From: Chloroflexota bacterium
Lineage (GTDB): Bacteria; Chloroflexota; Chloroflexia; Thermomicrobiales; UBA6265
NCBI GenBank assembly: GCA_023423795.1
Contig: JAFAEX010000311.1
Coordinates: 18,947-82,946 of the forward strand
Direction: 5' to 3'
DNA: 64,000 nucleotides
In this document: positions 23,355-52,499 of the stretch, piece by piece
How positions within the stretch are numbered: position 1 is the stretch's first letter
How the letters are laid out: each line of letters begins with the position of its first letter
Notes under the pieces: generated by a model
Databases searched by the model: none
Told to the model about the DNA's origin: nothing
The model's input: the letters and a program-made list of their open reading frames with translations, nothing else
Program-made: the position numbers and the translations under genes

Positions 23355-23528
23355 CGCGTTCTCCGCTCGCCGATTCGGCGGCCCACTGCGGCCGGTAGCG
23401 GCTTGGGCGACGCAATGCCGCCGTACGTCGGCGAGCACCGTTGGTCCTGCGCCGGTTCGCTGCGACGCCGCGTTCGTCGGGCAATCGACGCGGCGCTCCT
23501 CACGTGCTGCCGGGCCGGCTGCGCCGGG

Positions 23529-29684: not shown

Positions 29685-30602
29685 TCAGGTTCCAGCCGAA
29701 GGCCGTTTGATCAGCAACGCCCAAAATTCGTTGTGGCCGGCGAGCGTGTCGAACACGCGAGCTGGTTCGAGGCCGATTACACCGAGTTCGTTGAGCAGCC
29801 CGATGATTGAGCGCAACGACCGCGGCGTGAACTGCCACGCATGAAAATCGAGGTACTCGTTGCGGGAGGTGGCCCGATCGTACGACTCCATCGCGAGGGC
29901 AATGACTTCGGCGCCCAGTTGTGCCTGCTCGCCGTGGTCACCGCGCCAGTGGCGGACGGGATCATTGTGCGCGCCCATCGTTTCGTGCTGGATGGCCGTC
30001 CGTAGCGTGTGGAACCGCCGACGTTCGATGAACGCCACGATGACTTCCGCGATCGCGCTTTCCGGCAGGAAGTGGTCGAAGCAGTACCGGTTGTCCGGTA
30101 CGAACAGCAGATAGACGCCGCCGGGGGACAGGATGCGCTCGACCTGCTGCAAATGGGTGACGAGGTCGGGTTGGTGTTCGATGACGTGGCTGCTGAAAAC
30201 GACATCGAACTCGTCATCCACGATCGCGAGATCCCCGGTCGGGGACACGAAATCGATAGCCGGCACATCGACATCCACGAACCCGAGGTCCGCCGCGTGG
30301 CGGATGAGTCCAGCCCGGTCCAGGACGTCGAAATACCGCACGTTCGCGCCGCTGAAAGTGGGCTTGAAGAACGGTCCAATCTCGAGGATGCGGGACGCAA
30401 TTGGCACGAGATCCCGGAGCGCTTCCCTTGTTTCGAGCGGATGCGCTCGTCGCCCCATTGTCCGCCCGTATTGCTCATAGTGATCGCCCAGTTCGGCGTC
30501 CGTCAGGTACCAGAGATCGGAATGCAGCGAGCGATAGGTCCACGGTTCGAATTCCAAGGGGATCGTCGCCAGATCGAGGATCCCACGAGGTCCGACCGAC
30601 AT
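29685..30602 (-). CDS. Class I SAM-dependent methyltransferase (homologous to the N-terminal third of the 20961-23354 protein)
   Basis: Sequence: ILEIGPFFKP...FDVVFSSHVIEHQPDLVTHLQQVERILSPGGVYLLFVPDNRYCFDHFLPES. The N-terminal motif is YRSLHSDLWYLTDAELGDHYEQYGRTMGRRAH. Confidence 0.85.
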   Translation of the reverse strand: MSVGPRGILDLATIPLEFEPWTYRSLHSDLWYLTDAELGDHYEQYGRTMGRRAHPLETREALRDLVPIASRILEIGPFFKPTFSGANVRYFDVLDRAGLIRHAADLGFVDVDVPAIDFVSPTGDLAIVDDEFDVVFSSHVIEHQPDLVTHLQQVERILSPGGVYLLFVPDNRYCFDHFLPESAIAEVIVAFIERRRFHTLRTAIQHETMGAHNDPVRHWRGDHGEQAQLGAEVIALAMESYDRATSRNEYLDFHAWQFTPRSLRSIIGLLNELGVIGLEPARVFDTLAGHNEFWALLIKRPSAGT

Positions 30603-30690
30603 CGGGCCGCACTCCTATCGACGATTCGCCGCTTTCGCGCGGGTCGATTGCTGGACGGCGAAGACGGCCGCGCTGACTCGTTTGGAGTTC

Positions 30691-33600
30691 TTAGCTGGCT
30701 CCTGTCGCAAGATCCTTGCGCCGGGAAAACAGGATCGAAGGCAATTGCTCGCCCGCGAGGGCCAGGTCGAGGAAATGTTGTTTGTCGATCGGCTCGAGCG
30801 TGGTCCCGTGTGTTGCCCGCCACCACGCGTAGTCCCAAAACTGGTCCATCCACGTCAGGGTTGCCTGCTGACGGACCAGGCGGTCTGGCCTCGTGCCGCC
30901 ACCCACGATGTTTACGATGTTTATCGTGTGGAACGAGACGTAGAAGCTGCATGCCGCGGTCGCGATCCTGGATCCGAGGGAGGCTAGCATTCGGTACTCT
31001 GCTCCTTCGGTGTCGATCTTGACCAGCGCATGAGGGTCGTTCAGCCAGCCACGGCGGTCGAATTCGCGCCCGGTGTCCAGACCACGCACCGTCGCCATCG
31101 CGCCGGGTTCGAGCACCTCACCTCCTCGTTCAACAGACGAGAAGAAGGTCGTCTGCGAATCGCCGGGGCTGAACGCGTGGAGCACCGCGGGGCCGTCCTG
31201 ATCCGTGAGCGCGGCATCGATGATGTCGATCCGGCTGGCGAACTCGGGGTTGAGCTCAATGTTTCGGTGAAGGGCCTCCAGCGCGACCGGGTCGCATTCA
31301 TAGGCGGTAACGGACGCGCCCTTGCTCGCCGCGAACAGGACCGTCGGTCCTATCCAGGCGCCGCAGTCCACGTACGTCGTGCCGCTCGATACGAGGCGGT
31401 CGAGGACGGCGAACGTGTCGAGTTCCCACGCGCCCTGGTTGACTTCGTCCCAGAAGTTCGGAACGCTCGGCATCGGCCGGGCCAGGAATTGCTGGCCCCG
31501 AATCCGCACCTGGATTGGCGCCGCGTCAGCCGACGATGCGAGTGCCGAGTGGCCACCACCCGGGCCAGGCCTCGAATTCGGATCCGCGTGTCGCCCCGCC
31601 GAATGGCGTTCGAATGATAGGGGACGGCCGTTAGCGGCGTTCCAGCCGGTGGTTGGCATAGGGCTGCGCTCTCCGAGCACGAGATCGATGAGCGATGCCC
31701 ATTCTCCGTCGTCCACGGCACGGGAAGCCGCGCCGGCCACGAGGGCGGCAAGCCCGCGCCGCCGTGCGACATCGCAGGCGTCGATGAACTCGACGCCCGT
31801 CCGAGACCGTTCCTCGGCGATTTGGCCCGCGATCGCCGCGTATCGATCGGCCGGGAGCAGCGCCGTCGGCCGGCCGGCATACAACAGCGCAACCATCGCG
31901 TAGACCCGGTCTGGCCATGGTGCCGCATCTGACGACAGGAGGGCGGCAACCTTGGCGATCCTGGTCGAATCCACGTGCCGTCGAACCCAGTAGAGACTGC
32001 CAGGGAACTTGTGCAAGCCCCGGGACGAGCGGAAGAGGCCTGCTTTCGGTGGGTCCGGCGCGGTTTCGGCGTCCGCGATGATCACGAGGTCATGCTCGCG
32101 AGCGGTCCGCAGCGCGTCGTCAACTCCGTTGAGGACGAACACGTCGTCGCCCGCGACGCAACACTCGCCGCCGGGCCAAACGAGCGGGGCGGCGATTCGT
32201 TCTACCTCGACGCGGCGTCTCGCCTCGGCGGCCAGCCCACGTCCCATCGCTTGTTCGATCGTGGCGAAGACGAGGTCGCTTTGCGCAACGGTGGCGAACG
32301 GGGCCAGGGCCGTGAACTCACGTCGCGCGTGATCATCCCAATGATGTGAGCCGAAGAGCGTGATTCCGTTGGGACTGTACCCGTTGAGGATGATGCCGTA
32401 GACCGCGGTCAAGGCCCTGTGCGGCGATTCGCCGTCGGTGAAGAACCACAACTCCGGGCCGTTTGGGTAGCGCAGCGATTCCAGCACCCGTGGCAGGTGC
32501 TCTGAAAGACTCCTGGCAGGAGCTGGACCGTCAACGTTGATACGGTCCGACCCAGCCCGCCGATCGTCGTTCGTTTCCGCGGCGAACATCTCCCAGGCGA
32601 TCGCCACCTCGAGCCCGAGCGTGAGCCATTCCTCGTCGTTCCGCCACGGTCGGCGAAATCCGGTCCGGGTCGTTTTGCTGCGGAGTTCCACATATCGCTG
32701 ATGGTTGGCATTGACCTCGTCGGGGTCGAACGATGACGCTCCCGTCCACGCCATCAGGACGCCGTGGTTCAGCGCCGGATACCGTTCGTCGGGAAGGTTC
32801 CACTCGGTTCCGAACCGTGCGGCGAACCGTTCGGTCCATTCGACGTGTTCGATTCCGTAACCGTGGAACCGCGTGTCCAGATATCCCACGGAGTCGAGGG
32901 CGGCGCGCGACGTCACCGTGCACACTCCGGTGACGTGGGGGGTTGCGTACGGTCGGATCGCCGTCCCCGGTTCCGTCGGCCGGTCCTCCGGTGCGAGATC
33001 TGCGTTGTAACTCGATCCATCGAAGTTGACGTGGCGCCATTGGTGTCCGGCGTCGATCCATACCCGCTCCCAGCCATCCCGAACCGGCCAGGTGTCGTCT
33101 TCGAGCAGGATGATCGGGTCGCAATCGGTGCATTCGCGGAGGAAGTAGAGCGCGCGGTTCTTGTTCCAGGCGCAGCCGCGACGGTCGCCCGTCACGACCG
33201 GTACGCCTTCCCCGCGTGCCCACTCCACGGTTTCGTCAGTGCTTCCGTCGTCGGCGATCACGAGGACGTACGGACTGGTGGTATGGCGCGCAATCCGGGC
33301 GACGCACTGTTTGAGCGCGTCGAGGCGATTCATCGTGATGACGCCGATGCCCAGCACGCCAGTTCGGGGACCGGTGTCGCGGCTGCGTGTCATGTTCGCC
33401 CGTGGTGCGGTGTCCCACGATTGGCCCGGCCCTTCGGGGGTCGAACGCTCCCCCGGATCGGGGGTGCTCGCTTGCGCCGTATTGCCGCCCATTGTTCGGA
33501 CGCCCGCGGAAGCGATCTCCAACCGGTAGGCGCGCTCCTCGATCGGCACCAGCGGACGATGGTCACCCACTACATCTTTCCGCACCAGCGTCGGGAACCC

Positions 33601-34278
33601 TAGTTGCACCGCGTCGAAGGCGTAGCACGGGTCGTCCGTCAGCGGCGGGTCGATGCGCCACCGGATCTTTCGGTACAGCTCGCGGTGGACCATCAGGTAT
33701 CCGGCGGTGTTCCAGTGGGCCTGCACCGGAAAGCGGTAGCGCACGCCGCCCCAGCGCCCGACCGGTGAGATGAACTTCACCCTCCGTCCACTGAGGCGAT
33801 AGCCGGGCACCTCGCCGCCAACGATCGGCCAGTTGAGGGCCAGCAGCCCGGAGACCGAGTTCGGCGCCGGCGTCACGTCGGTGTCGAGGAACAGGATCCA
33901 GTCCGCGTCCCGCCGCATTGCGTACTCGACGATCAGGTTCCGCCCGGTGCAGATCCTCACCAGTCGCTCGTAACCGTCGATTCGGGTCGCCCCGGTGTCG
34001 ATAGAAAAGCCCCATTCGTCGTCCACCAGCCCGCCGAACGGGCTGGCGGACGGGTTTGCTCCGTGGTGTTCGAGCGCGACAAACCAGGCGAGCCGGAACC
34101 CCGCCGAGGCAGCGTCGGCCTCCATCGCGGCCCGTTCCGATAACCAGGCCAGGTGTTCCGCGGCGTCGTCCAGCTTGTACGGAGCGCACGTGGCGCCGAC
34201 TACGATAGTGCGCGTCTTCGTCCGGTCGTCCGGCTTCGTCGTGACGGTCTTCGATGTCCCGCTTCGGGTCTTGCCCAT
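30691..34278 (-). CDS. 1,195-aa multidomain enzyme: GT-A-like domain + GT2 glycosyltransferase + unknown middle region + C-terminal FkbM-family methyltransferase
   Basis: The start is ATG 34276-34278, preceded by AGGGGGA. The DxD-type motif is ILFLDTDV. The GT2 core reads GIGVITMNRLDALKQCV...VLVIADDGSTDETVEW...LLEDD. The FkbM core reads TYVDCGAWIGPTVLFAASKGASVTAYECDP...VKIDTEGAEYRML. Confidence 0.85.
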   Translation of the reverse strand: MGKTRSGTSKTVTTKPDDRTKTRTIVVGATCAPYKLDDAAEHLAWLSERAAMEADAASAGFRLAWFVALEHHGANPSASPFGGLVDDEWGFSIDTGATRIDGYERLVRICTGRNLIVEYAMRRDADWILFLDTDVTPAPNSVSGLLALNWPIVGGEVPGYRLSGRRVKFISPVGRWGGVRYRFPVQAHWNTAGYLMVHRELYRKIRWRIDPPLTDDPCYAFDAVQLGFPTLVRKDVVGDHRPLVPIEERAYRLEIASAGVRTMGGNTAQASTPDPGERSTPEGPGQSWDTAPRANMTRSRDTGPRTGVLGIGVITMNRLDALKQCVARIARHTTSPYVLVIADDGSTDETVEWARGEGVPVVTGDRRGCAWNKNRALYFLRECTDCDPIILLEDDTWPVRDGWERVWIDAGHQWRHVNFDGSSYNADLAPEDRPTEPGTAIRPYATPHVTGVCTVTSRAALDSVGYLDTRFHGYGIEHVEWTERFAARFGTEWNLPDERYPALNHGVLMAWTGASSFDPDEVNANHQRYVELRSKTTRTGFRRPWRNDEEWLTLGLEVAIAWEMFAAETNDDRRAGSDRINVDGPAPARSLSEHLPRVLESLRYPNGPELWFFTDGESPHRALTAVYGIILNGYSPNGITLFGSHHWDDHARREFTALAPFATVAQSDLVFATIEQAMGRGLAAEARRRVEVERIAAPLVWPGGECCVAGDDVFVLNGVDDALRTAREHDLVIIADAETAPDPPKAGLFRSSRGLHKFPGSLYWVRRHVDSTRIAKVAALLSSDAAPWPDRVYAMVALLYAGRPTALLPADRYAAIAGQIAEERSRTGVEFIDACDVARRRGLAALVAGAASRAVDDGEWASLIDLVLGERSPMPTTGWNAANGRPLSFERHSAGRHADPNSRPGPGGGHSALASSADAAPIQVRIRGQQFLARPMPSVPNFWDEVNQGAWELDTFAVLDRLVSSGTTYVDCGAWIGPTVLFAASKGASVTAYECDPVALEALHRNIELNPEFASRIDIIDAALTDQDGPAVLHAFSPGDSQTTFFSSVERGGEVLEPGAMATVRGLDTGREFDRRGWLNDPHALVKIDTEGAEYRMLASLGSRIATAACSFYVSFHTINIVNIVGGGTRPDRLVRQQATLTWMDQFWDYAWWRATHGTTLEPIDKQHFLDLALAGEQLPSILFSRRKDLATGAS

Positions 34279-34382
34279 GATCCCCCTATCGTCGTCCGAC
34301 GGCATCGTCGGGCGCGCTGGCCGGCTCTCCCGCGGTGCGCGCCGCATCCGCTCGGCTCGCCGCGGACATGCGTGTCGATCGG

Positions 34383-36239
34383 TCAGGAAACGGTCGTGTG
34401 CGCAACGTCGAATGGCTCGAAGCGAACCGGATTTTCCCGCCACCGCGCCAGTTCATGCCGCACCATGCCGTTGTTTTGCCGCCAGTCGTTCATGATCGCC
34501 TTTTCCGCGCCGCGTTCCGCCGGCGCGTGCGTGCCGCCGACGCCTTCGCCGACGAACGGCTCGTACCCTTGCACGATTGCCACGTTCGGTAAGGCGAACT
34601 CGGCGAAGAAGCGGTTTCCGCCGAACGCTTCCGGGCCGGCGAAGAAAAACTTGGGATGAACCCGGTCGACAAAATCTCGCACGCAGGCGTACCGCATCGC
34701 GAAGTGGGTCGAGACCGCCATCGCGCCCAGCGGCGCGCATGGCGCGTCGTACATGCGGCGTAGTGCGTTCGTCTGCTCGAGGTGCACCGGCTGAAACATC
34801 AGCCAATGCGGCGCCCAGACCCCGATTGCCGGGTTGGCGAAGATCGCGTCGGCCTCCGACCGCGCGGCCCAGAACCATCGCTCGACCGCCCAGCGCGCTT
34901 GGCCGTACTCCAGCTGGTCCAGCTTGGAGATTCCCTTCGTATGACCGAACCAAACCACGTCGAACGGTTCGGCGCATTCGCGGAGCGCCGCCAGCCCCGC
35001 GACCGTGCCCGCGACGTCGGAGGAAACCTGGACCCCCGGCGGCGCATCGCGCACCTCCGCGTCCAGCCCGCTCGCCTCGACCATTTCCCGCCACCCTGGC
35101 GCCGAACCGTGGTTGATCCCCACGAAGATCTTCGAATCGGCGTGGCGACGCTTCAGCATCTCCAGGAAATAGGCGGCAAGCGGCAGGCCCGATTCCGGCA
35201 CCCAGCTCGAAAAAACCACCGCGTCCCGAGGCCGGCCGGTCGGTTTGCGGTGCGGCCGCGGCGCCGTCCGGGTTGCCGGCGCCCAGCGCGGACCGCGCCG
35301 AACCACGCCGGTCGGGGCCAGCGCCACATCGACGATCTCCAGCGTTGCCCCGGCCGGCGCCACGGGTTTCAGCCGGAACGACGTGCCACCCTGGAACCCC
35401 GGGTGAAGGCGCCAGTTGCGCGGCTCGGCCGGCGCGATGGAGATCGATGAAACCTCTTCCCAGTCATCCAGCGCCAGGTCGAACTCGACGTGTACGACAC
35501 CCGTCGCCAGATCCACCGCCAGGTCGAGGAAATCCAGCGTGTGATGGAGGAAGGACGGGTCGTGGACATCGACGTAGACATCGGCGGCGACCCCGCGCGC
35601 GAGCGGCAACCGCAGATGCAGCGCATCCATCCCACGCACCATGAGCGTGAGCTCGCCGCGCAGCGCGCCCTCGATCGGGTCGCGCAGGATCAGCTTCAGC
35701 TTCGGATCGACCAGGTCGCCGATCGCGTGCAGGACGGTCGGGTTCGCCGGATCGACCGTCCAGCCCTGCACCTTCGCACGGACCGGCGGATGAGCGTCCC
35801 CGTCATCGTCCCGGTCTGGGCCGGCGCCGGGCTCGGCGGCGAGATCGGCCCGCTTCGGCGCGAAGGGAGTCTCTTCGGGTGCGGGATGTTCGCCGGCGAT
35901 GTCGGTAGTGTGGCCTGTCGGACCATCGCGGGCCGCGAGCAGGTCGAACGCAATGCCCTCCAGGCCCGCTTCGATCGTGAGCGGGAACGTCTCGACCAGC
36001 GCGGTCGCGACATCGGGCCGGTCCGCCAGCCATTCCGCGAACGCCATCGGCACCACGAACGCGGCGGCTCCACGGTCGGCGGCCAGCCGGAGCCACGCGA
36101 TGACCTCGCCGGTGTGGGCCGGCATGCCGTTATCGAACGGCGCTTGCTCCCACGTGACCGACTTCGGCAGTCCCGTCGGAACGGGACCGACCCCCACCAG
36201 GCGCCGCACGGGGGAACCGCGCCGTTTTCGGCCTTTCAT
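34383..36239 (-). CDS. Hypothetical protein carrying the second copy of uncharacterised domain X (C-terminal 280 aa)
   Basis: The start is ATG 36237-36239 (MKGRKRRGSP), overlapping the upstream methyltransferase stop (ATGA). The C-terminus (DAVVFSSWVPE...RHADSKIFVGINHGS...VWFGHTKG...FGGNRFFAEF) aligns without gaps to 20961-21893. The rest of the 1,017-aa track ORF is rejected. Confidence 0.8.
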   Translation of the reverse strand: MKGRKRRGSPVRRLVGVGPVPTGLPKSVTWEQAPFDNGMPAHTGEVIAWLRLAADRGAAAFVVPMAFAEWLADRPDVATALVETFPLTIEAGLEGIAFDLLAARDGPTGHTTDIAGEHPAPEETPFAPKRADLAAEPGAGPDRDDDGDAHPPVRAKVQGWTVDPANPTVLHAIGDLVDPKLKLILRDPIEGALRGELTLMVRGMDALHLRLPLARGVAADVYVDVHDPSFLHHTLDFLDLAVDLATGVVHVEFDLALDDWEEVSSISIAPAEPRNWRLHPGFQGGTSFRLKPVAPAGATLEIVDVALAPTGVVRRGPRWAPATRTAPRPHRKPTGRPRDAVVFSSWVPESGLPLAAYFLEMLKRRHADSKIFVGINHGSAPGWREMVEASGLDAEVRDAPPGVQVSSDVAGTVAGLAALRECAEPFDVVWFGHTKGISKLDQLEYGQARWAVERWFWAARSEADAIFANPAIGVWAPHWLMFQPVHLEQTNALRRMYDAPCAPLGAMAVSTHFAMRYACVRDFVDRVHPKFFFAGPEAFGGNRFFAEFALPNVAIVQGYEPFVGEGVGGTHAPAERGAEKAIMNDWRQNNGMVRHELARWRENPVRFEPFDVAHTTVS

Positions 36240-36967
36240 CGCTCGTGCTCCCGTCCGCGCGCCGTCGCCACGACGGCCATCGGCAGGAATGTCACCGTGT
36301 CCAGGCGACGCAGGACCGACGCGAACGCTGGGTGGTCGTCCGGCAAGAAACCGCGAGGGCTTCCCGCAAGGGTCCACGCCAGCGAGGTGAGGACGATTGG
36401 CAGGCCTGGTTCCGCCGGAGCCAAAAACGGGCCCATGCGGGAGGCGCGCGGCAGCCGGTCGCGCAGCGAAGCATCGGCTTGCGCGGCCGCATTGCCGAAC
36501 GCGGCGGGGTCCTGCAACGCTTCCGGCGAATCGTCGTACACGCCTTCGCACGCGTAGAACCCGGACGGCTCGATCGCCGGAAACAGCGCGGAGAACGACG
36601 CCCATTGTTGGGCGCCGTCCCGGCTGCCGTCGTCGATCACCACCCGGAACCGATGGTCTCGCAACAGATCCGCCAGCAACGCGCCGTTGCCTTGCGGACC
36701 GTGGACGATGCGGCACCGAGGCGGCAGATCCGGGACGAACACGCGGCGGATGTCGAGTCCGACGATCCGCGCGTTCGGAAAGTACTCGAGCCACACGTGC
36801 AGCGACGAGCCGTCGCCGACGCCGATCTCGAGCAGGTCGAAAGCATCGTCCCGAAACGGTGCGAGGAAGGGTTCGTAGCGTCGCAGCAGGTCCCGGTAGA
36901 GCGACGACCTGCTCGTGCCCCGTTCCCGTCCGATCTGGTCGAGGTCCCGGCGCCGCGTCCCCGTCAC
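36236..36967 (-). CDS. Class I SAM-dependent methyltransferase
   Basis: GTG start at 36965-36967, preceded by GGAGGA. The SAM-binding motif region reads LLEIGVGDGSSLHVWLEYFPNARIVGLDI...VVIDDGS. Confidence 0.8.
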   Translation of the reverse strand: MTGTRRRDLDQIGRERGTSRSSLYRDLLRRYEPFLAPFRDDAFDLLEIGVGDGSSLHVWLEYFPNARIVGLDIRRVFVPDLPPRCRIVHGPQGNGALLADLLRDHRFRVVIDDGSRDGAQQWASFSALFPAIEPSGFYACEGVYDDSPEALQDPAAFGNAAAQADASLRDRLPRASRMGPFLAPAEPGLPIVLTSLAWTLAGSPRGFLPDDHPAFASVLRRLDTVTFLPMAVVATARGREHER

Positions 36968-36980
36968 CCGCGTCCTCCGG

Positions 36981-37020
36981 AAAACGAAAACGGGGTGGCA
37001 GGACGCGCCCTGCCACCCCG
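36981..37020 (-). terminator. Intrinsic terminator directly after the Cys-rich gene
   Basis: On the minus strand, the stem is a perfect 12 bp (CGGGGTGGCAGG with CCTGCCACCCCG) with a 6-nt loop, followed by TTTTCGTTTT. It starts 15 nt after the stop at 37036 and ends 13 nt before the GTG of the next gene. Confidence 0.65.
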
Positions 37021-37035
37021 GGGAGCGTACCAGCC

Positions 37036-37482
37036 CTAGCGGTTGCGCTTGCCGCGCTTGCCCTTGGACCCCGCCGAGCCGCCGTAACCGTACTCGACGC
37101 AGAACCCGCCCTGGCAGTCGCCGCTGCAGCACTGCGCGCCGTTGCGGCACTGCGCCCCGCTCGGCTTGCACTGGCAGCGCTTTCGGCCGTTCGGCTGCGC
37201 CTGGGAGTAGCGGCTGCAGCACTTCTTGCACGGCTTGCACTTCGGCTTGCCGTTCTTCTTCTTGCCGCACTTGCCGCATCGGCGGCCGTTCGGCACGCAC
37301 CGTTCGTCTTCCGGCCCGTCCCCCTCGCCCTTCTTGCCCTTTTTCTTGGCGTCGGCGGCCTGGAGCCCGGCCACGCCGAGCGCGCTGGCCACCGCGCCAG
37401 AAAGCACCCCGCGAACGACGCCGCGGCGGGAAGCATCGGCCGTCAGTTTCTGGACCAACGCGTCGAACTTCTCCTGGTCCAC
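37036..37482 (-). CDS. Small cationic cysteine-rich secreted protein (twin-arginine leader; C-terminal C6C5CC3C4C knottin-like spacing)
   Basis: I prefer the GTG start at 37480-37482, preceded by AGGAGG (37489-37494) at 6 nt. This gives MDQEKFDALVQKLTADASRRGVVRGVLSGAVASALGVAGLQAADA. The mature part has 14 Cys and is Lys/Arg-rich. The track ORF starts at 37533. Confidence 0.75.
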   Translation of the reverse strand: MDQEKFDALVQKLTADASRRGVVRGVLSGAVASALGVAGLQAADAKKKGKKGEGDGPEDERCVPNGRRCGKCGKKKNGKPKCKPCKKCCSRYSQAQPNGRKRCQCKPSGAQCRNGAQCCSGDCQGGFCVEYGYGGSAGSKGKRGKRNR

Positions 37483-44644: not shown

Positions 44645-44649
44645 GGGGG

Positions 44650-45738
44650 TCAGGCGTCCGCCGGGTCGGTCGCCTTCGTGCGGCGGGTGCGTTTCGGCTT
44701 CGGCGGCGCGACGGGTTCGCCGCCCAGCAAGAGCGATTGCTGGGCGGCGGCCGGAGGTTCGGTCGCGGGCGGCGTCGGTGCGCGGAACGCCTCCTGCGCG
44801 GCAGCGAGCGCGGTCGCCAGTCCGTCGCCGTCGGCGATCTGCTCCGCCAGCAACGGCAGGCCGCCCTCGTTGATGAGCCGCCGGTTGCCTTCGGGAGCGT
44901 CGTCGCCGGCGCGAACGAGCAGGGGCGTCCACCCGCGCCGCAGGGTTTCCCGCGCGCCGGCCAGGGTGCCGCCCTTCTGCGCGTCGCTGGCGACGACCAC
45001 CGCCGCGTCGGCGAGCCCGTAGATCACCTTGTTGCGCGCCATCGCGTTGGCCGGGGTGAATCCGGCGTCGGGTTTGAACGGCGTCAGTAGCACGAGGTTC
45101 CCCTCGGCGATCGCCTGCCTCAGGGCAGCATCGCGCAGCCACTTTTCGAGGCTTTCGGCCAGCACGCCCACCGCGCGCCCGCCGCGATCCAGCGCGCCGA
45201 ACATGGCAACCCGGTCCACCCCGCGCGCGCCGCCGGACACGACCGCCAGCCCGGCCTGCGCCGCCGACCTGCCGACGCGGTCGGCGAACGCCGACCCGGC
45301 GCCATCGACGTCACGGGAACCGACGACGGCGACAGCCGGCGCATCCAGCAAATCGCGCGGCCCGGCGCCGAACAGCACCGGCGGCCGCAGGTTGCCGAGC
45401 CGGCGCAGTCGCGACGGGTACCCTTCGCCGGCGCGGGTGACCGCCCAGATGCCGCGCTGCTCCAGCCGTTCCAGGTCGAACGCGATCGTGCCCGCCCGTT
45501 CGAGCAGGATTGCCAATCGCTCCGGCGATGCGTCGGCCGTAGCCACTGAGGCGAGTTCGTCCGCCGTGCGGCCCAGCAACCACGACGGACGCAGGTTGGC
45601 GTCGTGCAGGCGCGCCGCGAGGTCGTGCCACCCCGCTGGCCCGAGCGGTTCCGCGCCCGACCCGCGGGGCAGACCGAGGTGGCTCGCCACCAGCAGGATC
45701 GCGAGGTCGTCGTCGGACAGCCGGGAGGCAACGGACAC
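44650..45738 (-). CDS. DprA/Smf-like Rossmann-fold protein (candidate PsyrA/ShosA-type antitoxin)
   Basis: The DprA core reads VAVVGSRDVD...GLAVVSGGARGVDRVA...NKVIYGLADAAVVV. An Ala/Pro-rich tail follows. It starts 10 nt after the RecQ-PRTase stop. Confidence 0.85.
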   Translation of the reverse strand: MSVASRLSDDDLAILLVASHLGLPRGSGAEPLGPAGWHDLAARLHDANLRPSWLLGRTADELASVATADASPERLAILLERAGTIAFDLERLEQRGIWAVTRAGEGYPSRLRRLGNLRPPVLFGAGPRDLLDAPAVAVVGSRDVDGAGSAFADRVGRSAAQAGLAVVSGGARGVDRVAMFGALDRGGRAVGVLAESLEKWLRDAALRQAIAEGNLVLLTPFKPDAGFTPANAMARNKVIYGLADAAVVVASDAQKGGTLAGARETLRRGWTPLLVRAGDDAPEGNRRLINEGGLPLLAEQIADGDGLATALAAAQEAFRAPTPPATEPPAAAQQSLLLGGEPVAPPKPKRTRRTKATDPADA

Positions 45739-45748
45739 GCAGGGTCTC

Positions 45749-47821
45749 CTAAGTGATACGGACTTTGGCCAGCGCGAACGGGTAGACCGGCCCGCTGCCG
45801 GCTCCGAGCAGTTTCATCGCCGCGGCGGTCATCGTCCAACCGGAATCGACCATGTCATCGACCAGCAGCACCGGGCCGGATCGGACCGCGTCCGGCTCCA
45901 CGCCGATCGCGCCCGCCACGTTTTCGGCCTGCTGGACGCTGTTGGCCATCTCCTTCTGGGGAGGCCGCTCGGCGGTCTTGCACAGCGCCGGGACGAACGG
46001 GAGCGCCAGTGCCGCCGCCAGCCGCCGGGCGAAATCCTGCACCAGTTCGCCGTGCCGGGTGGACGGAACGACCGTCACCCAGGCGGGCGCCGGGTTCGGT
46101 CGCCACCGCTCACGGACCAGTTCCGCCGCCGCCTGCACGAGTTCGTCGTCGAAACGGCCGGTGGCGTATTTGCCGTCCTTCACGAGGTCGCCCCAGCCGC
46201 CGTCGCCCCACGAGCACAGCGCCCGCCCCGGCTGGGGTCGCAAGTGCTCCGGAATCTTGCGCCACGGTGATGTCGGCAGCGCACCGGTCGGCAGCATGAT
46301 CCTCGGTTCGAGGACGATGTCGGAGCGACGGAGGAACCGCCGGGCCTCGATGGCGAGGCGGCGGTCGATCTCCATCGGCGCCACCGAGCGCCCGAGGCAA
46401 CCCGCGCAACGACCGCACGGCGTTGCTTCCGGATCGTCGAGCGCCCGCCCGACGAATTCCATCAGGCATCCCGGGCGGCGCACGAAATCCCTCGCCTGCC
46501 GCAACTCGTCGCGCCGTTGCCCGGTGATGCGCGCCGACCGCTCGTGGTCCGGCTGCCACGGGTTCGCCGTTCGCAGCCAGTCGCTCCCGTCGCGGGCGAC
46601 GATGCCGTCGGCTTCGAAGAACTTCAGCGCCTTGTCGATCCGCGACCGGCTCATGTTCACGCTGAGCTGGAGTTCGCCGATGGTGAGCGGACCATCCCGT
46701 TCGAGCGCGGCAATCAGGTCCTGTTGCTCAGCCGCGGACGGGAAGGCGGTGGTGATGAAGTAGTCGGCGATCTCGTCGTCCTCGCGGCCTTCGAGCAGGA
46801 TGGCGAGCGCGCTGTCGATGCCCCGTCCGGCGCGTCCGACCTGCTGGTAGTAGGCGACCAGCGAGCCGGGTCGCTGGAAGTGGACGACGAAACCGAGGTC
46901 GGGTTTGTCGAAGCCCATGCCGAGGGCGATCGTGGCGACGAGGGCCTTGACCCGGTTGTGGCGCAGATCGTCTTCCAGGGCGCGGCGCACCGCCGCTTCG
47001 AGGCTGCCGTGGTAGGCCGGTGCGTCTATGCCGTTCTGCCGGAGCCAGGCGGAGACTGTTTCGGCGTCGGTCACCGTGAGCGCGTAGACGATGCCCGAAC
47101 CCGGCAGATCCGGCAGCGTTGCCGCCAGCCAGGCCAGCCGGTCGGCCGGGTCGGCCATCGGGGCGGCCTGCAACCGCAGCGACTTGCGCGCCAGCGGCCC
47201 GCGCACGATTTCGAGGTTCGGCCCCAATTGCTCGGCGATGTCGGCCACCACGCGGTCGTTGGCGGTCGCGGTCGTGCCAAGCAGCGGAACGGTCGATGGC
47301 AGGAGTCGGGCGACGGAGACGATCCGCCGGTAGTCCGGCCGGAAGTCGTGGCCCCAGTCGGAGATGCAGTGGGCCTCGTCCACCACCAGCATGCCGACGT
47401 TGCCCTTGATCGAGGGCAGCGTGTGCCGCCGGAAGCGGTCGTTGCCGAGGCGCTCCGGCGAGACGAAGAGGACGTCGATGGCGCCGCTGGCGAGGCCGGA
47501 TTCGATGCCGTCCCAATCGTCCGTGTTGTCGCTGGCAATGTGGGCGGCTCGGATGCCCAGCCGGTCCGCCATGAGCCGCTGGTCGCTCATCAGCGACAAC
47601 AAGGGGCTTACGATGAGCGTTGGTCCGGCGCCGGCCTCGCGCAGCAGTTTCGTCGCGACGAAGTAGACGAGGCTCTTGCCCCAGCCGGTTCGCTGCACGA
47701 CGAGCAGGCGGGCGTGCCGTTCGGCGAGGGCGAGGATCGCCTCCCGCTGCCCGTCGCGGAACTCGGCGTCCGGCCCGAACATATTGGCCAGCAAGGCATC
47801 GGCGCGCGAACCTGCGTCCAT
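45749..47821 (-). CDS. RecQ-family helicase fused to a C-terminal ComF-like phosphoribosyltransferase domain
   Basis: RecQ motifs are FRDGQREAI, TGWGKSLVY and DEAHCISDWGHDFRPDYRR. The C-terminal PRTase motif PVLLVDDMVDSGWTMTAAA is preceded by a ComF-like VTVVPSTRHG. Confidence 0.88.
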   Translation of the reverse strand: MDAGSRADALLANMFGPDAEFRDGQREAILALAERHARLLVVQRTGWGKSLVYFVATKLLREAGAGPTLIVSPLLSLMSDQRLMADRLGIRAAHIASDNTDDWDGIESGLASGAIDVLFVSPERLGNDRFRRHTLPSIKGNVGMLVVDEAHCISDWGHDFRPDYRRIVSVARLLPSTVPLLGTTATANDRVVADIAEQLGPNLEIVRGPLARKSLRLQAAPMADPADRLAWLAATLPDLPGSGIVYALTVTDAETVSAWLRQNGIDAPAYHGSLEAAVRRALEDDLRHNRVKALVATIALGMGFDKPDLGFVVHFQRPGSLVAYYQQVGRAGRGIDSALAILLEGREDDEIADYFITTAFPSAAEQQDLIAALERDGPLTIGELQLSVNMSRSRIDKALKFFEADGIVARDGSDWLRTANPWQPDHERSARITGQRRDELRQARDFVRRPGCLMEFVGRALDDPEATPCGRCAGCLGRSVAPMEIDRRLAIEARRFLRRSDIVLEPRIMLPTGALPTSPWRKIPEHLRPQPGRALCSWGDGGWGDLVKDGKYATGRFDDELVQAAAELVRERWRPNPAPAWVTVVPSTRHGELVQDFARRLAAALALPFVPALCKTAERPPQKEMANSVQQAENVAGAIGVEPDAVRSGPVLLVDDMVDSGWTMTAAAMKLLGAGSGPVYPFALAKVRIT

Positions 47822-47902
47822 TCGGCATCCCCGGTTTATCTGGCGATTTCAGTGGCGCAGATCATATCGCGCCGTTCGCTGGATCAATGCGGCGAACGGA
47901 AA

Positions 47903-47945
47903 CGCCGCGGCCCGCTCCTCAGGGGGAAAGGAGCGGACCGCGGCG
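47903..47945 (-). terminator. Hairpin downstream of the DUF4397 gene
   Basis: A 17-bp stem with one mismatch (CGCCGCGGCCCGCTCCT with AGGAGCGGACCGCGGCG) and a 9-nt loop. Confidence 0.4.
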
Positions 47946-48097
47946 CTGGAAAAGGAGGTTGGGGCCGGCCAGCGTGCGTTTTGGGTCGAAAAGGGCGAGG
48001 CAACGCCGGTCCGGCGCGTTTTGGAGGGGAGTGGGTTCCGCTGGCGGCTACCTCGGCGACAGACCCGATTCGGCCGCCAGCGGGATGCGAGGATCGA

Positions 48098-48880
48098 TCA
48101 GGCGTCCGGGGTGGCCATCTCCGGGGCGGTGGTGGTGGCGACGATCGGGAGCACCGTCAGCGAGCCGTCGCCGACGTGGCCGATGGCGTAGACGCTGTAC
48201 ACGGAGCCGGCATCGAACGCGACGCCCGGCAGGGCGAGGGCGACGTCGGCGGTGCCGGTCGGCCGCACTTCGAGGTTGTAGCTTGCGGCGGGCACTTCGA
48301 GGTAGTCGCTGGCCTCGGGGAAGGCGAGGTTCTCGATCAGGACATCGCCGCCGGTGACGGCGACATCGACGGCCGGCGCGTCGGGCGAGGCGTGGATGAC
48401 GCGGACGCGGGCGTCCTCGGCGCCGAGTTCGCTGAGATCGGCCTGGAAGACCTGCGGGGTGATGTCGGCGAGCAGGCCGGTCGCGGCGACTTCGTAGGCC
48501 GCGCCTTCGGCGAGGGTGAGTTCGGCGTCGATGACGGCGGTATCCGGCGCCGCGCCGGTGGCGGTGACCTGGACCTGGTGCTCGCCGGCCGGCAGGGCGA
48601 CCCAGCCGGAGGCCGCGCCGAAGGCGAGGCCTGACAGCGCGAGGTCGCCGTTCACGTAGACATCCACGGCCGGGGCATCCGGGGAGGCGTGGATCACGTT
48701 GACGCAGGCGTCGCCGTCCATACCGATGCCGAGGGCGGTGACGCAGTTGCCCATGTCGGCGGTTGGGGTGGAGGCCATGTCCTGGGCCATCGCGCCCGGC
48801 TGGGCGAGGCCGGTCAGCATCGTGAAGGCGAGGACACCGGTGGAGCCGAGCGCGGTGACGAACTTCCGTCGCGAAGGCAT
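48098..48880 (-). CDS. DUF4397 domain-containing secreted protein
   Basis: The repeated pattern VRVIHASPDAPAVDV...NLAFP...Y is present. The Tat-like signal reads SRRKFVTALGSTGVLAFTMLTGLAQPGAMA. Confidence 0.85.
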   Translation of the reverse strand: MPSRRKFVTALGSTGVLAFTMLTGLAQPGAMAQDMASTPTADMGNCVTALGIGMDGDACVNVIHASPDAPAVDVYVNGDLALSGLAFGAASGWVALPAGEHQVQVTATGAAPDTAVIDAELTLAEGAAYEVAATGLLADITPQVFQADLSELGAEDARVRVIHASPDAPAVDVAVTGGDVLIENLAFPEASDYLEVPAASYNLEVRPTGTADVALALPGVAFDAGSVYSVYAIGHVGDGSLTVLPIVATTTAPEMATPDA

Positions 48881-49098
48881 GAGAGCGTCTCCTCTGGGGT
48901 GGCGAATGACTGGCTGGCCGGCCGGCGCGCGGTACCTCGCCCCGGATTAATATAAACCTATACATCAACTTCAAATCTGTCAACACCTCTCATCCGGATC
49001 GATCTGGACCGACCCGGATGTCCGGTGACACGAACCGCTGCCTATTGCATCGCCCATCGCCGCGTGCTATCCAATCTGTACTGGAGGTTGATATTTTG

Positions 49099-50046
49099 AT
49101 GGACGCCGATTCCGCCGCCGACCGAACCGACGAGCCGCTTTCCATCGGCACGGTGGTAGCGCGGCTGCGCGGCGAGTTCCCGGACGTCAGCCCGTCGGCC
49201 TTGCGATTCCTCGAGCGGTCCGGACTGCTCTCCGCTACCCGGACGGCGGGCGGCCACCGGCTGTACACGTCCGCGGACGTCGAGCGGATCCGCCGGATCA
49301 AGTCCTGGCAGCGCGAGCGGCTGTCGCTCGCCGAGATCCGGCAGCGCCTCGAGGACGCCGACCGGCTGGCCTCACCGGACGTGTTGGCCGACGCCTTCCT
49401 CCGGCTCGCCCTTGCCGGCGACCGGGCGGCGGCGTTTCACATCGTGGCGGCGGCGGACGAACTCGGCCTTCCGCTGGAGCAAACGTTCGGCGCCGTGATC
49501 CAGCCAGCGCTTACCGAACTCGGGCGGCGGTGGGAGACGGGCGAGGTGCTGGTCGCGCAGGAAAAAGAGGTGTCCGAACTGGTCCGAGACCTGGTGGCGG
49601 AACTGTCGCGCCGCCACGCGCAACCGCGGCCGGAGGGGCCGACGCTGGTGGCCGCCTGCGTCGAGGGCGAGCGGCACGAACTCGGGCTGCGCATGGCCTG
49701 TGGGTTGCTTCGGGAACGAGGATGCGCGGTCCATTTCCTCGGCGCCGATGTCGCGCCCCGGTTCGTGCTGGAGGCCGTGCGCCTGCACCGGCCGGATGCC
49801 GTGCTGTTGTCGGTTCACCTCGCCGTGAACCTGCCAGCGGTCAAGGACGCGGTCGAGGTGCTGACGATCGGATTGGCTCCACGGCTTCCGCCTCCGATCG
49901 TCGCTGGTGGCATGGCGGCGATCGGCCGACCGGACGCCATCCGCGGCTGGGGCGCGATCCCGGTCTCCCGACCGCAGCCGTCCGCCGCGCCGGGCGTCCT
50001 CGGCGACCTGCCCGGGTTGCTCGACGAGATCGTTTCGGGCGGATAG
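49099..50046 (+). CDS. MerR-family regulator with C-terminal cobalamin-binding domain (CarH/LitR-like)
   Basis: The MerR HTH reads LSIGTVVARLRGEFPDVSPSALRFLERSGLL...GGHRLY. The B12-binding region reads GERHELGLRMACGLLRERGCAVHFLGADV. ATG 49099 is preceded by GGAGGT. Confidence 0.85.
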   Translation: MDADSAADRTDEPLSIGTVVARLRGEFPDVSPSALRFLERSGLLSATRTAGGHRLYTSADVERIRRIKSWQRERLSLAEIRQRLEDADRLASPDVLADAFLRLALAGDRAAAFHIVAAADELGLPLEQTFGAVIQPALTELGRRWETGEVLVAQEKEVSELVRDLVAELSRRHAQPRPEGPTLVAACVEGERHELGLRMACGLLRERGCAVHFLGADVAPRFVLEAVRLHRPDAVLLSVHLAVNLPAVKDAVEVLTIGLAPRLPPPIVAGGMAAIGRPDAIRGWGAIPVSRPQPSAAPGVLGDLPGLLDEIVSGG

Positions 50047-50135
50047 GGCGCCGCACGTCCAGCGGCTGGAAAAAATCCTCGTCCAGGCCCGGAGCTACGG
50101 GCGGGTCCGGCGGCGCTCTCGGCGGTCGCCGCCGG

Positions 50136-50564
50136 TCAAACCGGAATGTCCTGCCAGCGCCGGGCATCGACGAAGCGCCCGAGGTGCCGGACATTCGTGG
50201 TGGCGACGATGACGCGGTTCGCGGGCAAGATTTCGAGCGCGGTGGCCGCCAGCAGGACATCGGCATCGAGCGCGTGCGAGGCGGCGGTGGGATGTCCGGC
50301 GTTTCGGGCGTCGGCCCAAAGCTGGGCGGCCCTGCGCATGATGTCGGTCGCGAACGGCGCGTAGCCAAGCGTTTGGCCGAGCCGATCGAGCCGGGACAAC
50401 CCACGGATGCTCCGTATACGGAGAATCTCCCGGCGGATCTCGCAGTCGGCGATCTCCGGAACGACGATTGCCCACGATTCCGCGGCGCGCATCACCCACT
50501 CGGCACCGTCCGGGTTCGGCCGCGGGTGGGCGATCTGGCCGAGCACGCCGCGGTCGAGGACGAT
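50136..50564 (-). CDS. PIN-domain toxin VapC-like; canonical start position occupied by ATC
   Basis: The PIN pattern is IVLDRGVL...E...DADVLLAATA...VATTNVRHL. The family-typical N-terminus (M-V-L-D) maps to the ATC at 50562-50564, which has AGGA 8 nt upstream. The nearest canonical starts are GTG 50546 (loses the first Asp) and ATG 50681 (112-nt overlap with the antitoxin). Confidence 0.7.
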   Translation of the reverse strand: MVLDRGVLGQIAHPRPNPDGAEWVMRAAESWAIVVPEIADCEIRREILRIRSIRGLSRLDRLGQTLGYAPFATDIMRRAAQLWADARNAGHPTAASHALDADVLLAATALEILPANRVIVATTNVRHLGRFVDARRWQDIPV

Positions 50565-50568
50565 CGCG

Positions 50569-50784
50569 TCAGTCCTGGAAGAGCAACGATTCGCCGGCGA
50601 TCGTCCGCTCCCGGTCCAGCGCCGATCGCAGGACCGGCCACGTCGATTCGTCGAAGCCGGTTTCGTCGTCGAGCCAGTCACGAACCATGCGAACGAACAC
50701 GCCGTTTCGCCTACGGCGTTCCGCGTCGTCGGTCAGGTAGGGGACGCCAGCCGGGATATCCAGGTCGATTGCTGGTTCGGCCAT
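50569..50784 (-). CDS. Putative antitoxin (VapB position), 71 aa
   Basis: ATG 50782-50784 is preceded by GGAGG. It sits immediately upstream of the PIN gene. I recognise no family. Confidence 0.5.
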   Translation of the reverse strand: MAEPAIDLDIPAGVPYLTDDAERRRRNGVFVRMVRDWLDDETGFDESTWPVLRSALDRERTIAGESLLFQD

Positions 50785-50842
50785 CGTGCCTCCGAAACCG
50801 AGACGCGGGAACTGTTGTCGCTCTTGCGCAATTGTATTCAAG

Positions 50843-51964
50843 TCAGCGGGCGGCGTGATCTCGCCGCGACTGGGTGGCCGATGTCGGTTCTGGGCCGGAC
50901 GGAAACACTAGCGCCGCACCGCGCACGCCGGCGACAACCCGATCCCCGGGGCGGATTCCGCCGTAGGAGCCGAGGCGGGCGCGCAGCACTCGGCCCGTGT
51001 CCAGCCGCACCATCAGGACCTGGTCGTGCCCGTAGAAGGCGCGCGACAGCACGGTGGCGTTACCTTCCGCGCCCGGCGGCGCCGGGGCGAGCCGCAGGGC
51101 TTCGGGCCGTAGCATGACCTCTACCGGCCCCCGTGCCTGGCCGATGATCGGCACGATGCCGAGTTCCGTCCCGGCCTGCCGCCCGGTAGCCTCGCCGGGC
51201 AGGAACTGGGCGTCTCCCACGAAACCTGCCACCCAGCGCGTGGCCGGACGGTGGTAGAGCTCCTCCGGCGTGCCCGATTGCACGACGCGGCCGCCGGCCA
51301 TCACCGCGACCCGGTCGGCGAGACTCAGCGCCTCCTCCTGGTCGTGCGTCACCAGCACCGCGGTTGCGCCGGCGGCCCGCAGGATGTCGCGGACTTCTTC
51401 CCTGACCGAGGCCCGCAATTCGGCGTCGAGGTTGGAGAACGGTTCGTCGAGCAGCACCAGATCCGGCGCCGGCGCGAGCGCCCGCGCCAGCGCGACCCGC
51501 TGCTGCTGCCCGCCCGAGAGTTGATCCGGCATGCGCCCGGCCAGCCCGTGGAGCCCGACGGTTTCCAGCGCGGCCGCGACCCGCTCGTTGCGTTCGTCGC
51601 GGCTGCCGCGCGGCAAGCCGAACGCGACGTTCTGCCCGACGCTGAGGTGGGGGAAAAGGGCATAGTCCTGGAAAACCATGCCGACCTTGCGCCGTTCCGG
51701 CGGCGTGAAACGGCGCCCCGTCGTGGAGACTTCGGCGACGATCCGGCCGCCGATCTCGATGGCGCCGGCATCGGGTTCCTCGAATCCCGCGACGAGGCGG
51801 AGGGTGGTCGTCTTGCCGCAGCCGGACGGCCCAAGCAAGGCGAGCAGTTCCCCGCGCCGCGCCTCCAGGTCCAGGCCCGCGACGACGACGGTCTCGCCGT
51901 AGTTCTTCGCCAAGGCGGTGCAACGCAGCGCGGGGACGTCCTCGGCGCGTTCGGGCGCGCTCAC
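50843..51964 (-). CDS. ABC transporter ATP-binding protein (FbpC/PotA/CysA-like with C-terminal TOBE-like region)
   Basis: Motifs are Walker A GPSGCGKTT, the signature LSGGQQQRVALARAL, and Walker B LVLLDEP. I call the GTG start at 51962-51964. No permease or binding-protein gene is adjacent. Confidence 0.88.
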   Translation of the reverse strand: MSAPERAEDVPALRCTALAKNYGETVVVAGLDLEARRGELLALLGPSGCGKTTTLRLVAGFEEPDAGAIEIGGRIVAEVSTTGRRFTPPERRKVGMVFQDYALFPHLSVGQNVAFGLPRGSRDERNERVAAALETVGLHGLAGRMPDQLSGGQQQRVALARALAPAPDLVLLDEPFSNLDAELRASVREEVRDILRAAGATAVLVTHDQEEALSLADRVAVMAGGRVVQSGTPEELYHRPATRWVAGFVGDAQFLPGEATGRQAGTELGIVPIIGQARGPVEVMLRPEALRLAPAPPGAEGNATVLSRAFYGHDQVLMVRLDTGRVLRARLGSYGGIRPGDRVVAGVRGAALVFPSGPEPTSATQSRRDHAAR

Positions 51965-52499
51965 GATTCCGGTTGACGCTCTCCGCCTGTCGGCAGTCGC
52001 TGTCGGTGCAATCGCCACCGGATCAGGCCGCCGCGCCGCTGCTTTTTGCCGGCAGCACGCATGGGCAGGCCGTCTGCGCCGGTTCGCGAGAAACTGGCCT
52101 GGGATGGGGCAATGCGGCTCCAGGCGACGGCATGCGACGAACTCCGTGACGCGACGCACGCGAACGAGTCGTCCGCGGCTCGGCGCCGGGATCGGCAACG
52201 CGCCGGTTTCGGTGGAAGGGCATGCGCACCGGAATTCCTCGGGCCGACGTTCGGAGCCGCCGGGAATCGGGCATACGAGCATTCCCGAGCGGACTGGTCG
52301 GATTGGCTGTCGCAAGGCTACGGTCGGGCTCGAAGGCTGTCAAACGGATGTCCGCTCGCGTGTTCCGGGGCCGCTCGCGGTTGGAAGCGATCTGCCAATG
52401 AGGGGATCGCCCCGACACTGATGAACTGACAATAGCCCGGGGAACCGGCTGGTATGCTGCCGGCCCGAATCGGTCGGAACCGGAACGGAGCAGGCGGGC

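Follow-up and report, generated by a model that had tools for sequence, protein, structure and literature searches.

The 64-kb stretch of Chloroflexota DNA analysed here (hereafter the window; contig JAFAEX010000311.1, order Thermomicrobiales, 69% GC) carries on its minus strand two adjacent genes, which are identified by sequence comparison as a chromosomal PsyrTA (also named RqlHI) toxin-antitoxin (TA) and anti-phage module. The first gene encodes a 690-aa protein, PsyrT (RqlH), in which a RecQ-like helicase is followed by a phosphoribosyltransferase (PRTase) domain, and the second encodes a 362-aa DprA-like protein, PsyrA (RqlI). A preliminary description, made from the letters of the sequence, had reported both open reading frames (ORFs) at these positions, 10 nt apart; both lie there, and all of the motifs that it quoted are present, including LLVDDMVDSGWT at aa 652-663 of PsyrT. 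The features of the locus are listed below.

45749..47821, minus: psyrT (rqlH), 690-aa RecQ-like helicase-PRTase toxin; ATG start; PADLOC PsyrT profile PDLC03928
46784..47821, minus: superfamily 2 (SF2) RecQ-like ATPase/helicase core of PsyrT, aa 1-346; Pfam DEAD and Helicase_C, match to RecQ structure 1oyw
46598..46720, minus: tentative winged-helix-like segment in the RqlH-specific linker, aa 368-408; weak Pfam HTH_24
46397..46468, minus: RecQ-type tetracysteine zinc-binding motif, C452, C469, C472 and C475, seen in the sequence
45752..46324, minus: C-terminal ComF-like type I PRTase domain, aa 500-690, presumed toxic effector; AlphaFold2 model and Foldseek
45833-45868, minus: phosphoribosyl pyrophosphate (PRPP)-binding loop LLVDDMVDSGWT, aa 652-663; conserved across the family alignment
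45739..45750, minus: gene junction; AGGAG Shine-Dalgarno sequence (45746-45750) overlapping the psyrT TAG stop, read from the sequence
44650..45738, minus: psyrA (rqlI), 362-aa DprA-like antitoxin, short form; GTG start; PADLOC PsyrA profile PDLC03927
45454..45738, minus: N-terminal helical (SAM-like) domain of PsyrA, aa 1-95; all-helical in the model, predicted local distance difference test (pLDDT) 92-98
44779..45453, minus: DprA-type Rossmann fold of PsyrA, aa 96-320; GSR 140-142, SGGARGVD 168-175, GGT 256-258
44653..44778, minus: Ala/Pro/Lys-rich disordered tail of PsyrA, aa 321-362, in place of the helix-turn-helix (HTH) extension of long-form RqlI
47822..48097, minus: upstream intergenic region of 276 nt, the non-coding gap between a DUF4397 gene and psyrT; presumed operon promoter region

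The two genes are separated by exactly 10 nt (45739-45748), and the GTG start of psyrA lies 7 nt past the AGGAG, the junction letters being ...ACT TAG GAG ACC CTG C GTG. The overlap of the Shine-Dalgarno sequence with the psyrT stop, together with the short gap, suggests that psyrT and psyrA form one operon and would be cotranscribed, with coupled translation. Both have the codon-position GC pattern of genuine genes, with a third-position GC content (GC3) of 0.88. A promoter scan of 44300-48300 did not find a sigma-70 consensus, a search that is uninformative for a Chloroflexota host, and returned one terminator-like match, at or under shuffle expectation.

Family assignment of the pair

The PADLOC profile for PsyrT was matched with an E-value of 1.4e-271 and 900.7 bits, with aa 5-687 falling on profile positions 6-684 of 689. 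Because this profile is matched end to end, PRTase domain included, the helicase-PRTase architecture is the normal one for PsyrT. Pairwise alignment gave 50% identity to E. coli PsyrT over aa 16-685, again including the PRTase domain; the E. coli reference for the pairwise comparisons was a 699-aa copy and not the RqlH of strain F11, and a 710-aa copy was also fetched. The downstream protein matched the PADLOC PsyrA profile with an E-value of 6e-100 and 333 bits (aa 7-302 on profile positions 3-298 of 398), shares 40% identity with its E. coli counterpart in aa 1-308, and was also matched by Pfam DNA_processg_A over aa 92-292 (3.4e-40, 138 bits). The profile check therefore bears out the preliminary description in its central proposal, a PsyrTA-type TA or anti-phage pair in place of housekeeping recQ and dprA, and both proteins also fall below the corresponding NCBIfam equivalog cut-offs, as given below.

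The architecture was already known from published work. Ordonez, Unciuleac and Shuman (2012; PMC3378886) reported that the 691-aa RqlH of Mycobacterium smegmatis is made up of an ATPase of the RecQ-like type (1-346), a linker peculiar to RqlH, a tetracysteine zinc domain (435-499) and a C-domain that is ComF-like and has PRTase motifs, and that it contains no HRDC domain. It was found to be a 3'-5' helicase whose ATPase is abolished by K49A and D148A, and the C-domain was dispensable for the motor (PMC3378886). Russell and Mulvey (2015; PMC4670107) showed that the 690-aa RqlH of E. coli F11 is genotoxic when RqlI is lacking, that the toxicity depends on the PRTase domain (509-690), with D663A being non-toxic, and that RqlI co-immunoprecipitates with full-length RqlH and not with RqlH(1-509). 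Millman et al. identified PsyrTA as RqlHI, reported that it protects from phage and that a psyrA deletion could not be transformed, and stated that a PRTase domain is present in the toxins of both PsyrTA and ShosTA.

The preliminary description had taken PsyrT to be a helicase only, and had accordingly read the locus as a new union of the toxin domains of PsyrT and ShosT. This picture was incomplete, since the reference architecture in both M. smegmatis and E. coli F11 is RecQ plus PRTase, and the new union is refuted by the profile coverage, by the 2012 and 2015 literature and by a search of 5.8 billion proteins, which returned more than 8000 PsyrT homologues, mostly of 680-710 aa. The helicase-PRTase "fusion" is thus the defining architecture of the family, described since 2012, and not a new combination. 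The further idea that the locus could inform how PsyrTA and ShosTA are related finds no support, the shared PRTase domain having been stated by Millman et al.

Compared with the characterised PsyrTA/RqlHI systems, the window pair has the same PsyrT length (690 aa against 690 in E. coli F11 and 691 in M. smegmatis MSMEG_5935), the same domain order of RecQ-like ATPase, linker, Cys4 zinc module and ComF-like PRTase, and the same placement of a DprA-like gene immediately downstream. It differs in that the 362-aa PsyrA is without the C-terminal HTH extension of about 100 aa that is found in E. coli RqlI (400-462 aa), and in that the host is a high-GC member of the Chloroflexota in which the pair has a chromosomal, non-island context.

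Four other assignments were considered and rejected. Housekeeping RecQ (E. coli, 1oyw) has an SF2 ATPase core and a Cys4 motif in common with PsyrT, as well as the 3'-5' helicase activity known from PsyrT homologues, whereas in PsyrT a linker of 90 aa separates the ATPase module from the zinc module, the C-terminus is a PRTase and Pfam gave no HRDC match; with the NCBIfam RecQ equivalog TIGR01389 it reaches 280.7 bits where the cut-off is 640.2, and only aa 9-368 are matched. Similarly, PsyrA has the SAM-like N-domain and Rossmann fold of housekeeping DprA/Smf (3uqz), but is 20-22% identical to Streptococcus pneumoniae DprA in structural superposition, is obligately paired with PsyrT across phyla, and scores 100 bits against the cut-off of 191.15 for the DprA equivalog TIGR00732. 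DpdF of the Dpd 7-deazaguanine DNA modification system also has a RecQ-like core, and PADLOC DpdF profiles match the window protein with up to 309 bits, but the PsyrT profile scores threefold higher; NCBIfam NF041063 gave 167.1 against a cut-off of 550, and no examined flanking gene matched a PADLOC Dpd profile. The fourth is ShosTA (PDB 8zva, 8zvb, 8zvd and 9vzo), which likewise combines a PRPP-binding PRTase-fold toxin with a DprA-like antitoxin made of a SAM-like N-domain and a Rossmann fold. However, ShosT is without a helicase and is about 11% identical to the PsyrT C-domain, and E. coli RqlI binds the RqlH PRTase domain directly while ShosA does not bind ShosT. ShosTA membership was rejected because the ShosT profile matched PsyrT at 21.9 bits over aa 578-687 only, the ShosA profile gave PsyrA 98.5 bits against 333 bits for PsyrA's own profile, and a helicase is present.

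Public pipelines annotate the two proteins as "RecQ family ATP-dependent DNA helicase" and "DNA-processing protein DprA", labels that hide a toxin-antitoxin/defence module, so that the value of the present assignment lies mainly in correct annotation. Any PADLOC or DefenseFinder run would call the window pair automatically. With this instance, the known range of PsyrTA comes to include an uncultured Thermomicrobiales bacterium of high GC; as for the PRTase substrate or the trigger of the family, the window copy offers no special handle on either.

Domain architecture of PsyrT and PsyrA

The helicase half of PsyrT was matched by Pfam DEAD at aa 23-194 (1.3e-19) and Helicase_C at aa 241-333 (7.7e-15). 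Residues 6-341 match the RecQ structure 1oyw, and every top PDB match is a RecQ-family helicase; the PDB contains no structure of PsyrT or PsyrA itself. The Walker A motif TGWGKS with K49 (aa 45-50) lies at 47672-47689 and the DEAH motif with D148 (aa 148-151) at 47369-47380, the numbering of K49 and D148 being that of the M. smegmatis RqlH residues whose mutation abolishes the ATPase. Conservation was evaluated on 76 full-length homologues extracted from genome loci, and K49, D148, E149, R330, R333 and Q622 are invariant in 76 of 76. Overall, the catalytic features of the window PsyrT appear complete in the alignment, with helicase motifs intact, four zinc cysteines present and the PRPP loop conserved.

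About 100 aa separate the ATPase core, which extends to approximately aa 346, from the cysteine cluster, and this segment is the counterpart of the spacer of about 90 aa in M. smegmatis RqlH. A winged-helix segment is tentatively placed within it at aa 368-408, where Pfam HTH_24 scored 20.4 bits, under its gathering cut-off of 21.9; assorted winged-helix HTH Pfam families are also precomputed on PsyrT homologues. The Cys4 motif that follows is homologous to the zinc domain of M. smegmatis RqlH (aa 435-499), and PF16124 (RecQ_Zn_bind) is precomputed on many PsyrT homologues. Ordonez et al. regarded the zinc cysteines as an RqlH signature (PMC3378886). In the conservation set they are kept in 52-55 of the 76 homologues, and a subclade of 22 sequences among loci L041-L079, for instance that of Mycobacterium colombiense (L077), is without all four while its helicase motifs and PRPP loop are kept. 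This Cys-less subclade mostly retains the downstream PsyrA, M. colombiense included, with the exception of L051, whose contig ends about 300 nt past PsyrT.

The C-terminal domain was detected weakly by sequence profiles and clearly by structure prediction. A VVPS motif is present at aa 584-587, and Pfam Pribosyltran matched aa 597-669 with 20.7 bits, below its gathering cut-off of 26.3. An AlphaFold2 model of aa 500-690 has a pLDDT of 94 and a predicted template modelling score (pTM) of 0.90 and adopts a type I PRTase fold. Foldseek comparison of this model with the PDB returned adenine phosphoribosyltransferase (APRT), the PRTase domain of PurF, ComF of Helicobacter pylori (7p0h) and ShosT (8zvd), with ShosT giving the top query coverage (TMq 0.60) at 11% identity. 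The PRTase fold of the C-terminus is thereby confirmed at the level of the predicted structure, despite the sub-threshold Pfam score. By analogy with characterised relatives, the LLVDDMVDSGWT loop is presumed to bind PRPP and the domain is presumed to be the genotoxic effector.

The PsyrA model has a pLDDT of 90 and a pTM of 0.85, and its ordered part superposes throughout on DprA of S. pneumoniae (3uqz; 310 columns, TMt 0.78), DprA of Rhodopseudomonas palustris (3maj) and ShosA (8zva; 318 columns). Within the DprA-type Rossmann fold, the invariant columns are G140, R142, S168, G169, G173, D175, G256, G257 and T258. An N-terminal SAM domain has been published for both DprA and ShosA. The N-terminal region, which the preliminary description had called atypical, can be aligned with E. 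coli PsyrA from its first residue and in the model is the usual helical SAM-like domain of the DprA/ShosA type. The Ala/Pro-rich tail noted there does exist, but it is nothing special: beyond about residue 320 the chain has a pLDDT of 39-57, is predicted to be disordered and is poorly conserved. Profile positions 299-398, which correspond to the C-terminal HTH, are unmatched. Short lengths of about 330-365 aa prevail among the 120 closest PsyrA homologues, so by sequence the form without the C-terminal HTH is the commonest one in this group. In E. coli, the HTH of RqlI was dispensable for neutralisation (PMC4670107).

Distribution, mode of action and competing explanations

At least 589 PsyrT relatives were found in GTDB species representatives, and the best 80 of these, 43-57% identical to the window protein, were used for a survey of loci covering more than 10 phyla and haloarchaea. 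They include Chloroflexota, Cyanobacteria, Verrucomicrobiota, Actinomycetota, Proteobacteria, Bacillota, Bacteroidota, Acidobacteriota and the archaeon Halorubrum. In 68 of the 80 loci, the gene immediately following PsyrT on the same strand encodes a PsyrA homologue; of the remainder, one has PsyrA upstream, six are on contigs that end too early, and for five a search within 10 kb gave no PsyrA. The neighbour genes of the window, by contrast, had 0-1 matches each in the same loci. Since the pair is kept while the flanks vary, the conserved unit is a two-gene cassette.

In the five loci without PsyrA (L023, L028, L046, L074 and L078, the last from Halorubrum cibi), 10 kb of downstream sequence is available and a PsyrA homologue was not found in it. 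The four orphan PsyrT proteins that could be aligned keep K49 and D148, with a PRPP loop that is recognisable and partly divergent. An identification of the PsyrA-less loci with the Cys-less subclade was rejected, as the two sets have zero overlap.

Within E. coli the pair is accessory, being present in 1678 of 5426 complete genomes (31%). In one strain (L081) psyrTA lies in a tRNA-Thr integrase island, adjoining genes for a SLATT-domain protein and a GTP pyrophosphokinase, and in an ST131 strain (L082; NZ_CP051609.1, 5948-9465) it lies between hsdS and hsdR, inside a type I restriction-modification operon. Twelve plasmid records, haloarchaeal ones included, have at least 80% PsyrT coverage. 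Full-length PsyrT was not found in phage genomes, where the matches are RecQ-like helicase cores only.

Taken together with the published work, these data suggest the following mode of action. PsyrT would be a monomeric RecQ-like 3'-5' helicase with an ATPase core, a winged-helix linker and a Cys4 zinc module, in which the PRTase domain replaces HRDC, and it would patrol or engage DNA through its helicase activity. PsyrA, cotranslated from the same operon, would keep the PRTase domain inactive by direct binding. During infection, foreign or infection-derived single-stranded DNA (ssDNA) or replication intermediates may engage the helicase, titrate the ssDNA-binding antitoxin, or both. The freed PRTase could then carry out PRPP-dependent chemistry on a substrate that is presumably DNA or the nucleotide pool, leading to DNA damage or to disturbance or collapse of that pool, and the outcome would be growth arrest, with SOS response and filamentation, before the phage cycle is completed. 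Homologues have been shown to have helicase activity, a toxicity that depends on the PRTase and binding between toxin and antitoxin, and to protect from phage when expressed in a heterologous host; by analogy with them, the window copy would be expected to be active. The PRPP requirement and the ssDNA-binding antitoxin are suggested by analogy with ShosTA, for which it has been published that PRPP binding is essential for toxicity and that ShosA binds ssDNA and RecA; ShosA is reported to neutralise without binding ShosT, through ssDNA and RecA (type IV). It is considered highly probable that the pair is a canonical PsyrTA (RqlHI) member and also works through a PRTase toxin held by a directly binding antitoxin.

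Several observations weigh against a defence role for the window copy. Ten flanking genes have no significant PADLOC match, which does not support a defence island, and inspection of the annotated genes revealed no integrase, transposase or tRNA. The GC content (0.714) and GC3 (0.88) of the cassette are both host-like. The cassette also occupies the same chromosomal site in a metagenomic relative (L083) whose PsyrT is 77% identical, and whose contig matches positions 58097 to 44829 of the window collinearly, with a nucleotide identity of 76-82% and two indels. The shared site implies that the cassette has been resident there since the two lineages diverged, and for so long-resident a gene pair a physiological role in DNA metabolism would fit too. 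Moreover, one E. coli PsyrTA gave no detectable phage protection either in its native NILS69 host or on overexpression in K-12 (bioRxiv 10.1101/2024.12.20.629700). Support from an island or from mobility is therefore absent at this locus; the TA/defence assignment is uncontradicted, and a repair-type role is possible. The housekeeping synteny that the preliminary description had named as speaking against defence was found in part, the neighbours being syntenic in the close relative but not across phyla. In any case, the window shows that PsyrTA can be maintained at a fixed place in the chromosome without a defence island around it.

The strongest competing explanation is that the pair is a domesticated DNA-repair module and no conflict system, in which RqlH would be the RecQ-type recombination or repair helicase of the lineage, a function proposed for it in mycobacteria without a classical RecQ, and RqlI its DprA-like partner or regulator. 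The stable position shared with the relative, the host-like composition, the ordinary neighbours without marks of mobile elements and the intact helicase motifs all fit such a role, as does the activity of the related antitoxin ShosA, which acts by binding ssDNA and RecA, that is, in repair. RqlH-encoding mycobacteria are without RecQ (Ordonez et al., PMC3378886), and neither a canonical recQ nor a canonical dprA turned up among the ORFs examined in the 64-kb window. Yet RqlH and RecQ coexist in many Actinobacteria and E. coli strains (PMC3378886), and PsyrT is about 50-57% identical to proteins from many phyla without conserved flanks, a similar level of identity that argues for horizontal spread. 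In E. coli, as described above, the pair is accessory and located in defence or integrative islands. The conserved PRTase domain is dispensable for helicase activity, as found in M. smegmatis RqlH, but required for toxicity, as found in E. coli. The repair module is accordingly judged unlikely. It is likewise rather improbable that psyrTA in the Thermomicrobiales in particular is no longer a mobile conflict system and has become a vertically inherited, domesticated RecQ-type module for repair or ssDNA processing; if this were true, the lineage would provide a natural case for PRTase action on DNA or nucleotides in normal physiology.

Two further explanations account for the pairing without a role in either defence or repair. 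A selfish addiction cassette, kept solely by post-segregational toxicity and giving no defence or repair benefit, would agree with the first discovery of the family as a TA pair through shotgun-cloning bias, credited to Sberro (2013) in later papers, with the psyrA deletion that could not be transformed (Millman et al.) and with the lack of protection in the native-host tests; a weak PIN/VapC-like pair also adjoins psyrTA in the relative. Nevertheless, this explanation is very unlikely, as defence has been shown experimentally for PsyrTA homologues and the 346-aa helicase motor is strictly conserved, which is difficult to account for in a toxin that serves addiction alone, since it is the PRTase domain on which toxicity depends. 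The preliminary description had further pointed to a parallel with ComFA, ComFC and DprA, which is not new, having been drawn by Russell and Mulvey (2015; PMC4670107). It would correspond to a competence-type DNA-uptake module in which a fused ComFA-like helicase and ComFC-like PRTase act together with DprA on incoming transforming ssDNA, and the C-domain is indeed ComF-like in fold (7p0h) and sequence while PsyrA has the DprA fold. The helicase is of the RecQ type, however, as the PDB matches show, PsyrA is below the DprA equivalog cut-off, inspection of the neighbouring genes revealed neither com nor pilus genes, and E. coli, a species without natural competence, commonly carries the pair, so that an uptake function is extremely improbable. 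Assignment to PsyrTA as a TA/anti-phage module thus remains the preferred reading.

Other genes and regions of the window

The genes flanking psyrTA are ordinary by Pfam, encoding an M1 peptidase, a response regulator, a DSP phosphatase, Dps, an Amidohydro_3 protein, a DUF4397 protein, a MerR-B12 regulator and an ABC ATPase. A placement of psyrTA in a defence island was rejected, since these neighbours are ordinary and none has a significant PADLOC score. Scans of the whole window for tRNAs and Rfam families found nothing. NuoD homologues from named metagenome-assembled genomes, at 79-91% identity, make Thermomicrobiales/Chloroflexota the probable affiliation of the host.

Two differences from the relative lie upstream of psyrT. 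The window has an extra 2.3 kb at 47824-50135, between the PIN gene described below and psyrT, which contains the MerR-B12 regulator gene (49018..50046) and the DUF4397 gene (48098..48880). At 51892-52549 of the window, about 1.4 kb encoding an ABC permease in the relative is missing, which leaves the ABC ATPase gene at 50843..52315 without a partner.

At 50136-50841 on the minus strand, corresponding to 9262-9922 of the relative, lies a gene whose 149-aa product matches PIN weakly over the full length, and a small ORF of 73-90 aa precedes and overlaps it. At 18.7 bits in the window and 23.2 bits in the relative, the match stays under the gathering cut-off of 23.6; in the relative this pair is located 75 nt upstream of psyrT. 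From their sequences and arrangement, the PIN protein and the small ORF probably constitute a VapBC-like TA pair.

A gene for a UvrD/REP-family helicase at 62128-63858 (minus) encodes the only other DNA helicase among the ORFs examined. At 20961-23438 (minus), an ORF of 825 aa shows gene-like codon bias and is without a Pfam match at E<=1e-5. The block at 29685-37436 (minus) stands out by a GC content of 0.668 against 0.69, and no ORF in it passes the GC3 filter. An rRNA operon was considered for 29.5-37 kb and rejected, as Rfam found nothing and the region consists of large protein ORFs: one of 305 aa at 29685..30602, one of 1250 aa at 30691..34443, for which there was no PADLOC match, and another very large one within 34383..37436. 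By eye, these ORFs resemble glycosyltransferase/methyltransferase fusions, and the block is possibly a glycosylation cluster gained by horizontal transfer.

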